Source: Planctomycetota bacterium
GTDB taxonomy: Bacteria; Planctomycetota; MHYJ01; WSZJ01
Reading direction: 5' to 3'
DNA length: 30,714 bases
NCBI GenBank assembly: GCA_038060895.1
Contig: JBBTCT010000039.1
Coordinates: forward strand, 1-30,714
The notes under the pieces are model-generated. The model was not told where the DNA came from. It worked only from the letters and a program-made list of their open reading frames with translations, and did no database searches. Below are positions 10,748 through 14,958 of the stretch, one piece after another. Position 1 is the stretch's first letter. Each line of letters starts with the position of its first letter. The position numbers and the translations under genes are program-made.

Positions 10748-11455
10748 TTACGGTAGCCTCTTCCCCACCGCATCCCAGTCCACGACGCTCCACCACGCGG
10801 TCACGTAATCGGCGCGCTTGTTCTGGTACTTGAGGTAGTAGGCGTGCTCCCAGACGTCGAGTCCGAGGATCGGCGTGGCGCCGGCCGCGAGCGGCGAATC
10901 CTGGTTGGGGAGCGACGTGATCTCGAGTTTCCCGTCCTTCGCGATCAGCCAGGCCCAGCCGCTTCCGAAGTGCTTCGTCGCCTTTTCGCTGAAGGAGGTC
11001 TTGAAGGCGTCGAATGAGGTGAAGGCGCCTTTGATGGCGTCTCCCAGCTTGCCGCCGGGCTCGCCGCCGCCGCCCTTCTTCATGGAGGTCCAGAAGATCG
11101 AGTGGTTGTGGTGTCCTCCGCCGTGGTTGCGGACGGCGGTCTGGATGTCCGCTGGGAGGGTGGACTGAGCCTTGAGGAGGTCTTCGAGCGACTTCTTCGC
11201 GTGCTCGGTCCCGGCGACGGCCTTGTTGAGATTGGTCACGTAGGCCATGTGGTGCTTGTCGTGGTGGATCGCCATGGTTTCCTTGTCAATCGCCGGCTCG
11301 AGCGCGTCGTTGGCGTAGGGCAGCGCGGGGAGCGTGAAGGCGTCGGCGGGCTTGTCCTCGCCGAACGACAGGGACGGGCGGATGAGACCGGCGACGGCGA
11401 CGGCCCCGGCGGCGGTCAGGAAGCCACGGCGGGTGAAGATCGGACTGTCGTTCAT
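10748..11455 (-). CDS. sodA: Fe/Mn superoxide dismutase, Mn-type signature, with Tat signal peptide
   Basis: Start ATG 11455 with AGGAG RBS; TRRGFL Tat motif; [36 protein letters not shown]. Confidence 0.93.
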
Positions 11456-11507
11456 GCAGCGTCTCCTGGAAGAAGAGGAATCGGGACCCGGTCGAGGCCG
11501 GGGCGGG

Positions 11508-11516
11508 ATTGTAACA
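11508..11516 (-). promoter_or_regulatory. Extended -10 element upstream of sodA
   Basis: Minus-strand TGTTACAAT (TGn + TACAAT) about 53 nt upstream of the start codon. Confidence 0.5.
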
Positions 11517-11520
11517 GCCA

Positions 11521-11544
11521 TTCGACTCGCTTCGCTCGCTCAGG
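11521..11544. repeat. REP-like short element containing the GCGAAGC mini-hairpin
   Basis: TTCGACTCGCTTCGCTCGCTCAGG; the minus strand reads CTGAGCGA-GCGAAGC-GAGTCGAA. Confidence 0.5.
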
Positions 11545-11669
11545 CCGGAGGCCGATCCGCCCGAATTCCACCCGCCGGAATGGCAGCCGGACCGTCCGGG
11601 AAGGCGGTCAGGTGTCCTCCTCCGGGGCCAGCCGCCGCGGGCGTTGCCCCGGGAATTCGGCAAATGCGC

Positions 11670-11700
11670 GGAATACGCTTTGCGTAGTCACTGTTACCAT
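11670..11700 (+). promoter_or_regulatory. Candidate ECF (SigR/SigH-type) promoter overlapping an extended sigma70 -10
   Basis: GGAAT (11670-11674), exactly 18 nt, then GTT (11693-11695); TGTTACCAT at 11692-11700. Confidence 0.55.
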
Positions 11701-11724
11701 TCTTGCGAGGCTTGGGAGGCACGT

Positions 11725-12285
11725 GTGAATCGGGCAGACAAGATTGCCTTCGAGAAAATTGCGTTCGAACACCTCGACCGGCTTCACGGGACAGCGCTCA
11801 AGCTGACCCGGAATTCCGCCGAGGCGGATGACCTCGTCCAGGAGACCTACACCCGCGCCTTTCAGCACTTCGAACAGTTCGAACAAGGCACGAACTTCAA
11901 GGCCTGGATCTTCCGGATCCTCGTCAACACGTACATCAACGGTTACCGGCGCAAGGGACGCGCTCCGGCGCTCGTCGATTTCTCCGAGATGGAGCCGGTC
12001 TACGAGGAAGCGGTTCAGGACACGTCGTTCCTGAACCAGCCCGTGGACAGGCTGTACGAGCGGCTGGATGACGAGGTAAAGCACGCGCTGGAAAAGCTCC
12101 CGGAGGAGTACCGGGTGGTCCTGCTGCTGGCGTCGGTCGAAGGGTTCTCGTACGAGGAGATCGCAAAGATGGTGAGCATTCCGATCGGAACGGTCATGAG
12201 CCGCCTGTTCCGTGCGAGGGCGCTGATGAGGCGCAATCTCGTGGATTACGCGAAAGAACACGGGCTGGAGGAGAAGTCGAAATGA
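11725..12285 (+). CDS. ECF sigma-70 factor (SigR/SigH/RpoE-like)
   Basis: GTG start at 11725 after GGGAGG; EADDLVQETYTRAF, GTNFKAWIFRILVNTYIN, EGFSYEEIAKMVSIPIGTVMSRLFRAR. Confidence 0.95.
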   Translation: MNRADKIAFEKIAFEHLDRLHGTALKLTRNSAEADDLVQETYTRAFQHFEQFEQGTNFKAWIFRILVNTYINGYRRKGRAPALVDFSEMEPVYEEAVQDTSFLNQPVDRLYERLDDEVKHALEKLPEEYRVVLLLASVEGFSYEEIAKMVSIPIGTVMSRLFRARALMRRNLVDYAKEHGLEEKSK

Positions 12286-13082
12286 ATTGCCCCGAAGTCC
12301 GCAAGATCGTGTACCTGTTCGTGGACGGCGCGCTGGATCCGCGGGCCAACGTCGATGTGCTGGCGCACCTGAACATGTGCCCGCCTTGCAACGAGCGCTT
12401 CTCAGACGCGAAGAAGTTCGAGGATTTCCTGAAGGAGAGGCTGCGCCCGCAACCGGCGCCGCCGGCCGTCCGGGCGCGGATCGACGCACGGCTCTCGGAA
12501 ATGACGGCGCCGTGGCCGCTTCGACTCGCTGGCGGACTCAGACGGCGGCCGCTGATTTCGATGACGGGCGTGGCAGCGCTCCTGGTCTTCTCGTTCCTGG
12601 GCCTGCGCGGCTTCGGGAGCCTCACGACCTGTCCGTACGTCCGGGACACCGTGAAGTTCACCAAGGACATTCAGGCGAACAGGGTCGAACATCTCCCGCC
12701 CGACGGACCCGGTCGCGAGGAGGAAAGAAAGTACCCGACGCCCTTCGTCGACGGATTTGCCTCCGTGAAGAACGGCGATTACCTCACACAGGTCGGGCCG
12801 GCGTTCCAGACCGCGGTTGCCAGGGCCTACCGGATGGACCATTGCGCCGAAGACAAGACCTGCGTGGTCCTGTACTTCATCAGCGCCCCCAGCCTCCCCT
12901 TCGGCGAGCACAACTGCGTCGTCATCCGCGGGAAAAAGTACTGCGTCTGGGAGCACGACGGGTGCCGGATTGTGACCTGGAAGAACGAGAAACTCGGTCT
13001 CTACTGCATGGCCGTCTGCCAGGTGACAGAGATGGATCACGATGCTCTCGTGAATTTCGCAAACATCGCCTCGACCCAGTGA
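12282..13082 (+). CDS. Membrane anti-sigma factor: zf-HC2 (ZAS) domain, one TM helix, Cys-rich extracytoplasmic domain
   Basis: ATGA overlap with the sigma gene; MNCPEV...DGAL...HLNMCPPC; TM GVAALLVFSFLGL; 8 Cys after the TM. Confidence 0.9.
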   Translation: MNCPEVRKIVYLFVDGALDPRANVDVLAHLNMCPPCNERFSDAKKFEDFLKERLRPQPAPPAVRARIDARLSEMTAPWPLRLAGGLRRRPLISMTGVAALLVFSFLGLRGFGSLTTCPYVRDTVKFTKDIQANRVEHLPPDGPGREEERKYPTPFVDGFASVKNGDYLTQVGPAFQTAVARAYRMDHCAEDKTCVVLYFISAPSLPFGEHNCVVIRGKKYCVWEHDGCRIVTWKNEKLGLYCMAVCQVTEMDHDALVNFANIASTQ

Positions 13083-13100
13083 ATCTTCAGCGGGGACACC

Positions 13101-13541
13101 ATGACACGAATCGGAAAGGCATTGTTCTTCCTGGGCAGTCTCTTTCCGCTCGCGGCATGTGAGAACGGCGCCGGCGGCGCCGGGCACGTGGCGAAGTCCG
13201 GCTGGCTGAGCGATCTGGAGGAGGCGAAGAAGGAAGCGAAAGCCTCGAACAAGCCGATCCTGATCGATTTTGGCGCGGAGTGGTGAGGCGGCTGCAGGGT
13301 CCTCGACGGCCAGTTGGCCGATGCGACGCTGGCGGAGACGCTGAAGGGATTCGTGCTGCTGCACGTGGACCTGACGAAGCCTGCCGAGGGCTCGCCTGCC
13401 GCGAACGCGGCGGACAAGTACGGAGTGAAGTACCTGCCGGACCTGCGCATCCTGTCTGCGGACGGGACGGTGAAGGCGACCGTCGAGTCGCGTGATGCGA
13501 AGGACCTGCTCAAGGAGCTGGGCGAGGCCCTGAAGAAGTAG
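13101..13541 (+). CDS. Thioredoxin-fold lipoprotein with selenocysteine (U62, WUGGC motif), 146 aa
   Basis: Lipobox LAAC; WLSDLEEAKKEAKASNKPILIDFGAEW-TGA(13284-13286)-GGC-GGC-TGC; the same frame continues to KYGVKYLP (cis-Pro loop) and TAG at 13539-13541. Confidence 0.88.
13287..13325 (+). promoter_or_regulatory. Candidate bacterial SECIS element
   Basis: CGGCC(13307-13311)-AGTT-GGCCG(13316-13320) hairpin; apical loop starts 25 nt after the UGA and has G at loop position 2. Confidence 0.7.
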
Positions 13542-13551
13542 AATTGCGCCG

Positions 13552-14958
13552 ATGATCCGTGTCGCCGCGCTTTGCCTGCTCGCCTTGGCCGCCTCGCAAG
13601 GGCGCGCGGAGATTACGGCCGCCGCGTCCTCCATCGACATCTCCCCCGACCCCGCCAGGTCCGCCGTCTGGCTCGCGGGGTTCAGCATGAATCGCCGGGC
13701 TACAGGTGTGCACGACCCGATCCGGTCGCGGGCGATCCTCGTCTCCGACGGTAAGACGCGCGTCGCGATTGTCGTGCTGGATCTCGTCGGGTTCATGCGG
13801 CCCCACGTCGAGAAGGTGCGGGCGAAAATCGGCGATGTGGCGGACTACGTGCTCGTAGCGAGCACGCATAACCATGAAGGCCCCGACGCGATGGGAATCT
13901 GGGGACGGACGCCCTTCGAGAGCGGAATCGACCCGGCCTGGATGGCCACGACCATCGATGCGATCGCGGCGCAGGTTGGCGCGCTCGCCTCCGCGTTGCG
14001 GCCCGTCACCCTCCGCGCGGCGCAGGTCGAAGGCCCGGTTAAGGAGTTCGTCCGGGACTCACGCGACCCGGCCATCATCGACAACACGCTGTCCGCTCTT
14101 CAGCTCGTAGGCGCGGACGGCACGACGGTGGCGACCCTCGCGAACTGGGCCTGCCACCCCGAGATCCTCTGGAGCGGAAACACACTTCTTACCGCGGACT
14201 ACCCGGGTTACCTCTGCTCCCGGCTCGAAGAACGGCTCGGGGGGACCGCCCTGTTCGTCAGCGGCGCGATCGGCGGCATGATGACGCCGGACCCGCGTCG
14301 AGATGAAAAAGGCGAGAAGCTGCGGACGTTCGCCGAAGCCGAGCGGGTCGGTCGCGGCATCGCCGATCGCGCGGTGGACGCCCTCGCGAAAGTGGAACTG
14401 TCCAGGGACCCCGCCCTCTCCATCCGCACCCGGGAACTGCTGCTCCCCTGCACCAACCCGCGCTTCCACGTCGCGATGGCGCTCAAACTCCTGTCGCGCG
14501 AGATCTTTGATGCGGAAGGAAAGCCCTTCGAGGGGCGGATCAGCCCGAAGAAAACTCCGTGGGTGCGGACCGAAATCGGCGTCCTCACGCTCGGCCCGGT
14601 TCAGGCCGCGCTTGTCCCCGGCGAGCTCTTCCCCGAACTCGCCGTCGGCGGGTTCGACGGGACGAAGGCGTTCGGCGCGGAGATCGTGAAGAAAGACAAC
14701 CCAAACCCGCCACGGATCGCCGAAGCGCCGAAAGGTCCGTTCCTTCGGGATCTTCTCGACGCGCCCGTCGAGATGATCGTCGGCCTGGCCAACGACGAGC
14801 TCGGGTACATTCTCCCGGAGTACGACTTCCAGGTGAACGAGAAGAGCGCGACGCTGGAGCCGCACCCGCCCGGGGATCACTACGAGGAGACCAATTCGCT
14901 GGGGAAGGAAACGGCGAAGCGGGTCATGGACGCGTTCACCGAACTCCTGAAGAAGTAG
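13552..14958 (+). CDS. Exported neutral/alkaline ceramidase-like amidohydrolase
   Basis: Signal peptide; VWLAGF...GVHDPIRSRA, STHNHEGPD, NWACHPE, ADYPG, GLANDELGYI, HYEETNSLG. Confidence 0.82.
   Translation: MIRVAALCLLALAASQGRAEITAAASSIDISPDPARSAVWLAGFSMNRRATGVHDPIRSRAILVSDGKTRVAIVVLDLVGFMRPHVEKVRAKIGDVADYVLVASTHNHEGPDAMGIWGRTPFESGIDPAWMATTIDAIAAQVGALASALRPVTLRAAQVEGPVKEFVRDSRDPAIIDNTLSALQLVGADGTTVATLANWACHPEILWSGNTLLTADYPGYLCSRLEERLGGTALFVSGAIGGMMTPDPRRDEKGEKLRTFAEAERVGRGIADRAVDALAKVELSRDPALSIRTRELLLPCTNPRFHVAMALKLLSREIFDAEGKPFEGRISPKKTPWVRTEIGVLTLGPVQAALVPGELFPELAVGGFDGTKAFGAEIVKKDNPNPPRIAEAPKGPFLRDLLDAPVEMIVGLANDELGYILPEYDFQVNEKSATLEPHPPGDHYEETNSLGKETAKRVMDAFTELLKK

Follow-up and report, generated by a model that had tools for sequence, protein, structure and literature searches.

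An in-frame UGA that probably encodes selenocysteine in a predicted exported thioredoxin-fold lipoprotein of a Planctomycetota bacterium

Introduction

Does the TGA at positions 13284-13286 of a stretch of Planctomycetota DNA end a gene, or is it read as selenocysteine (Sec, U) in the middle of one? The stretch (hereafter the window) comprises 30,714 nucleotides (nt) of contig JBBTCT010000039.1 (assembly GCA_038060895.1, positions 1 to 30,714, forward strand), and the TGA lies within a locus that we name trxU (13101..13541, + strand). An earlier note on this DNA, made from the sequence alone, had interpreted the locus as a hidden gene for an extracytoplasmic selenoprotein with a UxxC active site. 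Comparison with related genomes supports that interpretation through a conserved TGA, a covarying hairpin and the presence of the Sec machinery. From this sequence evidence, we consider it very likely that 13101..13541 is one gene for a selenoprotein, with UGA 13284-13286 read as Sec62. With good confidence, the locus as a whole is best explained as encoding an exported thioredoxin-like lipoprotein selenoenzyme, acting as a reductase, in an envelope oxidative-stress operon.

The available text of two reviews (PMC13188914, PMC9312934) assigns most prokaryotic selenoproteins a thioredoxin-like fold that carries a redox motif, and selenoproteins of the exported, UxxC, thioredoxin-fold kind form a known class.

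Results

A single reading frame is interrupted only by TGA

Under genetic table 11, the list of open reading frames (ORFs) contains two on the + strand, 13101..13286 and 13314..13541, which share a common frame and lie 213 nt apart from start to start. Re-reading the sequence together with these ORFs bears out the proposal that the only in-frame break in 13101..13541 is the TGA at 13284-13286, with codons for DFGAEW on its 5' side and GGC GGC TGC on its 3' side. With the TGA taken as sense, the gene runs from an ATG over 146 codons to a TAG stop (13539-13541). The translation gives the 146-aa product that had been predicted; its residues 17-20 read L-A-A-C, and U62 opens the U-G-G-C part of W-U-G-G-C. 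Two Pfam families match across the TGA: Thioredoxin_7 (PF13899; 53.7 bits, E 2.3e-14, cut-off 27) and Thioredoxin (PF00085; 49.1 bits, E 5.9e-13, cut-off 23.5).

The note also expected standard gene callers to split or truncate such a gene. Table 11 indeed gives two ORFs, and a search of public proteins at near lengths returned 2 proteins only, one of them a truncated fragment of a relative. In this protein (P0002; 84 aa, from a 555-nt contig) the gene call begins just past the U-x-x-C site, which illustrates how gene callers truncate TrxU-type genes.

A sequencing or assembly error at 13286 was to be checked in reads. Contigs X3 (12873-13373) and X4 (12984-13431), assembled from two runs that belong to a different study from the one that probably yielded the window, show 0 differences over the TGA, with no TGC, TGT or TGG in its place. 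The TGA is therefore not an assembly error.

The TGA is conserved as a sense codon

A six-frame search found a match to TrxU in 41 of 41 related genomes, the window's own included. In 7/7 congeners, the best match (46-82% identity) contains exactly one in-frame TGA, at the homologous codon. Whether homologues have Cys or TGA at position 62 had been suggested as a check, and both forms were found: when the aligned codon was mapped over 90 distinct homologous sites, 23 carried TGA, 66 carried TGT or TGC (TGY), and 1 was misaligned. The 23 TGA sites comprise 19 of the 20 loci L020-L039 (L037 has Cys) and four paralogues within the host genome. Both flanks of the TGA are conserved in these homologues, and the codon is kept not only in all congeners but also in 11 of 12 loci more distant than congeners. 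Of the Cys-type sites, 63 are loci from other phyla; the related-loci search back-translated U as Cys, so that only Cys-type relatives could be found and the result is silent on Sec forms elsewhere. In a phylum sample of 121 evenly chosen genomes, 42 had a match at E <= 1e-8. Among the 58 matches listed for this sample, 13 have one TGA, 44 have none and 1 has TAG.

The sequence 3' of the TGA behaves as coding sequence. Across 84 aligned codons from 8 genus sequences there is 1 gap column and there are zero stops, and the ratio of nonsynonymous to synonymous substitution rates (dN/dS, Nei-Gojobori) is 0.16-0.86, below 1 in 28/28 pairs. The TGA is thus neither confined to one strain nor accompanied by decay, the circumstances under which the proposal was to be abandoned: it is present in all congeners, and the frame downstream is open and under purifying selection.

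TGA is also used as an ordinary stop. It terminates the sigma factor and anti-sigma factor genes upstream, and trxU itself in 3 congeners, which excludes a reassigned genetic code. Judged by these codon comparisons, the catalytic position of a thioredoxin fold is here encoded by a UGA that is conserved and has sense, and the homologous sites with TGA or Cys are a classic Cys/Sec pair.

A hairpin downstream of the UGA accompanies the Sec forms

Within the coding region, our own hairpin-search script and the comparison below identify a hairpin (13304..13323, + strand) that looks like the elements known as SECIS (Sec insertion sequence). Its core, CGGCC-AGTT-GGCCG, pairs C13307-C13311 with G13316-G13320 around the loop AGUU (13312-13315), and flanking pairs join 13304-5 to 13322-3. 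The loop lies 25 nt from the A of the TGA, which confirms the position given in the earlier note. Published constraints on bacterial SECIS elements (bSECIS) call for 3-9 nt in the loop, 4-16 bp in the upper stem and a G at one of the first two loop positions (PMC13188914), together with 16-37 nt from UGA to loop and a minimum free energy of at most -7.5 kcal/mol (PMC13188914, Fig. 2 legend). By our script, the window hairpin satisfies every constraint quoted in that text: the stem has 5 bp, the 4-nt loop has G second, the spacing is 25 nt and the energy is -9.4 kcal/mol. The SECIS search that had been advised was made in this form, against the published constraints, and the stem also covaries.

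We then took, for each homologue, the best perfect-stem hairpin in the 42 nt past the codon, at a threshold of -7.5 kcal/mol. Such a hairpin is present in 21/23 Sec genes (19-25 nt past the UGA) vs 2/66 Cys genes at the equivalent place. The difference persists among sequences with G+C >= 0.6 (17/18 Sec vs 1/28 Cys; one-sided Mann-Whitney p = 2e-7, a value that overstates the case since the sequences are kin and not independent). The hairpins of the Sec genes have 17 different stem sequences, with loop centres 23.5-30 nt past the U of UGA; the loop is AGUU in the window's genus vs AGGU, GGGC or G-U-N in relatives.

To assess covariation we used alignment A3, in which 10 distant relatives line up without gaps. 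For its 7-bp helix, 78.6% of cells are paired, and in 4/7 of its pairs both sides change in a compensatory manner; several of these changes, read from A3, are at synonymous third positions. Only 1-3 of 500 shuffles reach the pairing and covariation values, and slid controls give 29-67%. A MAFFT alignment of 15 sequences (A1) was excluded from the pair counts, as a 3-nt gap throws its hairpins out of register. The only Rfam match of 13260-13380, to a small nucleolar RNA family (E = 6.1), was dismissed as chance.

The host genome encodes the Sec machinery

The host genome (G000) consists of 47 contigs totaling 5.42 Mb, is 86.5% complete and has 65.8% G+C. All four genes whose presence the proposal required (selA, selB, selC and selD) were found, with scores above curated cut-offs: tRNA-Sec (71.7 bits; confirmed by ARAGORN, anticodon TCA), selA (541 bits), selB (344 bits, a single 670-codon frame) and selD (364 bits).

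Two further observations concern this machinery. The selD gene (G000:C2:48628-49548, - strand) contains one in-frame TGA and probably encodes a selenoprotein form of SelD. In addition, at distances of ~230 nt from the gene for tRNA-Sec (C4:13533-13624) and ~12 kb from selA (C4:24942-26297) there is a UxxC paralogue (G000:C4:12906-13307, - strand) that carries the motif ...SDD-U-GAC and has a lipobox-like N-terminus of its own.

Predicted fold, active site and export of TrxU

The predicted thioredoxin-fold domain spans W35-K146 (13203..13538). An AlphaFold2 model of this region, built with 46 aligned sequences, has a mean predicted local distance difference test score of 90.4 and a predicted template modelling (TM) score of 0.81. 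It shows the strand and helix order of thioredoxin, with U62 immediately before helix 1 (model residues 29-38). The only invariant columns in the alignment of the same 46 sequences (A2) are U62/Cys, Cys65 and Pro113 (C28, C31 and P79 of the fragment). These correspond to the UGA at 13284..13286, with which the redox motif U-G-G-C starts; to the TGC at 13293..13295, encoding the putative resolving Cys; and to the CCG at 13437..13439, encoding a proline whose cis-proline role is suggested by the fold. Membership of the thioredoxin fold is thus indicated by the PF13899 score, by the motif at the N-terminus of helix 1 and by the invariant P113.

Top Foldseek matches (TM 0.7-0.8) are ERp19 (1sen), a Xylella disulfide isomerase (3fk8), cDsbD (2fwf) and many thioredoxins. 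In a sequence search of the PDB, '...lidfgaewcggc' of TrxU aligns with '...lvdfwaewcgpc' of thioredoxin. As far as sequence can tell, the surroundings of the active site, buried Asp included, are those of a thioredoxin-type reductase.

More specific families did not match at their cut-offs. TrxU scores 21.3 bits against Thioredoxin_2 (PF13098; cut-off 27), 37 bits (residues 34-89 only) against the Trx7/PDZ family NF041199 (cut-off 300; TrxU has UxxC and no PDZ domain in its 146 aa) and 43.6 bits, for the Trx domain only, against TsoB, a selenoprotein resembling a rhodanese/DsbD fusion (NF045694; cut-off 805). The DsbG-like (seleno)protein family NF041057 is absent from the 11 NCBIfam families matched at E <= 0.01. 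All NCBIfam matches are sub-threshold and at domain level; two of them, TsoB and Trx7/PDZ, are selenoprotein families.

The N-terminus reads as a lipoprotein signal peptide (residues 1-19 with lipobox L17-A-A-C20, 13101..13160; Cys20 codon 13158-13160): MTRIGK, a hydrophobic core, then L-A-A-C20. The lipobox consensus is [LVI][ASTVI][GAS]C, against which the motif was read by eye. It is kept in 8/8 genus orthologues, one of them with A at -3, and distant relatives have ordinary signal peptides. Genes for both processing enzymes are present in the host genome (lspA, 92.8 bits; lgt, 149 bits). The lipobox match and the lgt and lspA genes make it likely that TrxU is a lipoprotein, as had been claimed from the LAAC motif.

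The host genome also contains a gene for a DsbD_TM (CcdA/DsbD membrane) module at G000:C14:123686-124321, followed by three Trx-like domains. With such a module encoded, reducing power can reach the envelope.

Thioredoxin-like domains in the host genome

A hidden Markov model made from 88 aligned domains was run on a six-frame translation of the host genome with TGA read through. It identified 36 thioredoxin-like domains: 20 with UxxC (17 of these matches at E <= 2e-5), 2 with UxxU, 2 with one U outside the searched pattern and 12 with CxxC. Approximately 22 of the 36 have a TGA in or beside the redox motif. Examples with TGA at the first motif position lie at G000 C35:20498, C1:199053, C12:200116, C4:13223, C5:109482, C2:62251, C42:31101 and C34:94853. 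The genome looks rich in exported selenoproteins, and this lineage, which the run labels place in groundwater, seems to invest heavily in such proteins. Among the runs, X1 and X2 may be where the DNA came from, and those with a small share (X5-X15) were left out of any statement on habitat.

Six of the 36 domains (the trxU locus and five others) lie <=3 kb from a gene resembling an extracytoplasmic function (ECF) sigma factor, compared to ~3% for a random point. Loci of this kind include G000 C12:197697-200116, C34:92601-94853, C7:231030-231881 and C5:100706-102139. It should also be noted that the region beginning with the CcdA/DsbD module (G000:C14:123686-125700) continues with domains carrying UTNC, CGPC and UHAC, likely a reductive pathway that includes selenoproteins.

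Genomic neighborhood of trxU

Pfam places trxU third in a set of four + strand genes. The first encodes an ECF sigma factor (11644..12285; Sigma70_r2, r4_2, ECF). The second (12282..13082; zf-HC2; ends in TGA) encodes an anti-sigma factor of the zf-HC2 (ZAS) type that spans the membrane and whose extracytoplasmic domain is rich in Cys. The fourth gene, downstream of trxU, encodes an exported neutral/alkaline-ceramidase-like protein (13552..14958; Ceramidase_alk, 33.8 bits). The sigma and anti-sigma genes overlap by 4 nt, and gaps of 18 nt and 10 nt separate trxU from the anti-sigma and ceramidase-like genes, respectively. No terminator-like site was found on the + strand between the four genes. 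The order sigma/anti-sigma/trxU is present in 7/7 congeners and the ceramidase-like gene follows trxU in 6/7. Distant UxxC relatives do not have the sigma/anti-sigma neighborhood.

In an alignment of the anti-sigma factor (A4), the cytoplasmic motif H29-x3-C33-x2-C36 is invariant. The protein has a single membrane span, and of the Cys in its extracytoplasmic domain four are invariant and four mostly conserved; no Pfam family covers this periplasmic domain. The start of trxU shares its frame with the TGA (13080-13082) that ends the anti-sigma gene 18 nt before it. Fusion of the two proteins by read-through of this TGA was considered and rejected, as L021, the closest relative, has the two genes in different frames; the shared frame is probably coincidence.

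Upstream of the sigma gene, on the - strand, lies a gene for a divergent Fe/Mn superoxide dismutase (SOD; 10748..11521; Sod_Fe_N, Sod_Fe_C), which is adjacent to the operon in 4/5 congeners searched. Its long N-terminal extension with an RRGFL twin-arginine-like signal suggests a periplasmic SOD. The same 4 congeners each have a second, shorter SOD elsewhere.

Discussion

Alternative explanations

That the TGA is a true stop, leaving a nonsense-mutated pseudogene or two small genes (13101..13286 and 13314..13541), would fit the two ORFs that table 11 yields and the public fragment of a relative that starts just past the motif. This explanation is scarcely credible when TGA occupies the same codon in 8/8 genus species and in more distant relatives, when the 84 downstream codons are under purifying selection in every pair with no frame-breaking indel, and when a single thioredoxin fold spans the TGA, neither half being a domain alone. 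Conservation of the frame shows only read-through as such, and so would also suit a UGA that is read without Sec, by near-cognate suppression (Trp, Cys or Arg) or under a reassigned code. We regard this as highly improbable: TGA stops two upstream genes and, in 3 congeners, trxU itself; in the alignments the codon is matched by the catalytic Cys rather than by Trp or Gly; the SECIS-type hairpin goes with the TGA forms and not with the Cys forms; and the genome has the complete set of Sec machinery genes.

Two other explanations accept a selenoprotein and differ on what it does. TrxU could be an oxidase or isomerase (DsbA/DsbC-like) or a peroxidase instead of a reductase; its predicted extracytoplasmic location, the unusual G-G dipeptide, the ready reaction of Sec with peroxides and the H2O2-making, probably periplasmic SOD encoded next door are compatible with such a role. 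We find it possible but doubtful, as the active site is surrounded as in thioredoxin (D-F-x-A-E-W-[C/U]-G-x-C), the closest folds belong to cDsbD, ERp19 and thioredoxins and not to DsbA, and the genome encodes a CcdA/DsbD conduit. Alternatively, TrxU could serve signalling and not general repair, acting on the Cys-rich domain of the anti-sigma factor to set ECF sigma activity. The gene order kept in all congeners, the conserved Cys of the periplasmic domain and the excess of Trx-like domains near ECF-sigma-like genes speak for this idea. It is nevertheless unlikely, given that genes downstream of an ECF sigma factor are usually just its regulon and that distant UxxC relatives occur outside this neighborhood. 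In its specific form, a long shot, TrxU would be the dedicated redox partner of the anti-sigma factor, reducing, or failing to reduce, disulfides among its conserved extracytoplasmic Cys and thereby gating the ECF sigma switch. If so, envelope redox state, and perhaps selenium supply, would be coupled to an ECF sigma factor in a selenoprotein-gated signalling module, as opposed to a repair enzyme, and the recurring link of Trx-like genes, most of them UxxC, to ECF sigma genes in this genome would point to a family of such switches.

Several results count against a Sec-encoding trxU or against parts of the role proposed for it. The window hairpin alone is no better than chance: 33 of 100 shuffles equal it in a stretch that is 72% G+C, and the 71-nt fold (13275-13345) has z = +0.79, which is uninformative in G+C-rich DNA. 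Since the hairpin is unremarkable alone, the structural claim must rest on comparison with relatives. In that comparison, 2/23 Sec genes have no hairpin at <= -7.5 kcal/mol under the perfect-stem rule (L034 has none and L030 only one of -5.7 kcal/mol). The stem register varies between subgroups, with 3/10 A3 sequences using a register shifted by 1.5 nt, and a second stem register on A3 was not significant over all 10 sequences. Rfam returned no SECIS family, either for the whole window at the gathering threshold or for 13260-13380 at E up to 10. Over the 27 codons 5' of the TGA, a short and noisy stretch, dN/dS is below 1 in 26/28 pairs and above 1 in 2/28. The sole contig from an RNA library (X11, 13970-14142) lies inside the downstream gene and is no proof of transcription for trxU. 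Finally, the reductase direction, the lipidation, the CcdA link and the role in a stress regulon are what we infer.

Proposed mechanism

Weighing these points, we favor a selenoprotein gene that would work as follows. During translation, the hairpin at 13304-13323 would act as a bacterial SECIS and recruit SelB-GTP-Sec-tRNA(Sec), so that UGA 13284-13286 would be decoded as Sec62 instead of stop, as the comparative evidence suggests. Once the precursor is exported, Lgt would lipidate it on Cys20 and LspA would cleave it. A ~14-residue Gly/Ala-rich linker would then tether the mature thioredoxin-fold domain to the extracytoplasmic side of the membrane.

The active site, D55...W61-U62-G-G-C65 together with cis-Pro113, copies the thioredoxin arrangement DF-AEW-C-G-P-C, which makes reductase the most likely chemistry; we somewhat favor the view that TrxU works in the reductase direction. 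The selenolate of Sec62 would attack a disulfide or other oxidised sulfur of an envelope protein, Cys65 would resolve the mixed selenenyl-sulfide, and the Se-S bond would be re-reduced by electrons that cross the membrane via a CcdA/DsbD-type protein. Expression of trxU would be under the ECF sigma factor, probably within an envelope oxidative-stress response.

Comparison with known systems

On this evidence, a gene that comes out of standard callers in pieces or cut short can probably be re-annotated as a full thioredoxin-fold selenoenzyme, and its conserved pairing with an ECF sigma/anti-sigma pair offers a testable lead on the role of exported selenoproteins. TrxU fails NF041199, NF045694, PF13098 and NF041057 and passes only the general models PF13899 and PF00085, and we therefore place it in the known class of exported UxxC proteins. 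A term search of the available text of PMC13188914 did not find the string PF13899, and the available text of PMC9312934 names Thioredoxin_7 once, for a CxxU PDZ protein. Planctomycetota are not mentioned in the available texts of these two papers and of the BSepDB paper, and a literature search, at the level of its listings, returned no paper focused on Planctomycetota selenoproteins. TrxU is perhaps an unlisted subfamily of the exported UxxC thioredoxin-fold class, of which supplementary tables or BSepDB may already hold relatives. The catalogue would gain a UxxC, single-domain, lipid-anchored Thioredoxin_7 form, where term searches of the available review texts gave only the CxxU Trx7/PDZ protein.

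The window hairpin lies within the limits of the consensus bacterial SECIS model, as quoted in the available text, for loop, stem, G, spacing and energy; compared to that model it is a minimal form, its core stem having 5 bp. At the protein level, the nearest solved folds are cDsbD (2fwf/1uc7) and ERp19/TXNDC12 (1sen), with TM 0.77-0.78. Both are of the Thioredoxin_7 type and are located outside the cytoplasm or in the endoplasmic reticulum. In contrast to TrxU, both are Cys enzymes (~21-22% identity), and cDsbD is one of the three domains of a membrane protein. The Trx7/PDZ (seleno)protein (NF041199/pfam13899; PMC13188914, PMC9312934) has the Thioredoxin_7 domain in common with TrxU. As described in the available text, it has CxxU, ~390 aa and a PDZ domain, whereas TrxU has UxxC and a single domain. 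UxxC selenoproteins of the PF13098/NF041057 type are likewise extracytoplasmic thioredoxin-fold oxidoreductases, but TrxU fails both models. Sec-containing thioredoxin (Trx, PF00085, UxxC) is listed among experimentally characterised selenoproteins (PMC13188914). From what that text gives, TrxU differs from it in being a predicted exported lipoprotein that scores better on Thioredoxin_7, in having G-G and not G-P in the motif, and in its place in an ECF sigma operon. The two are alike in fold, in Sec as the first residue of UxxC, in the W-U-G-x-C context and in a SECIS within the coding region, and TrxU passes PF00085.

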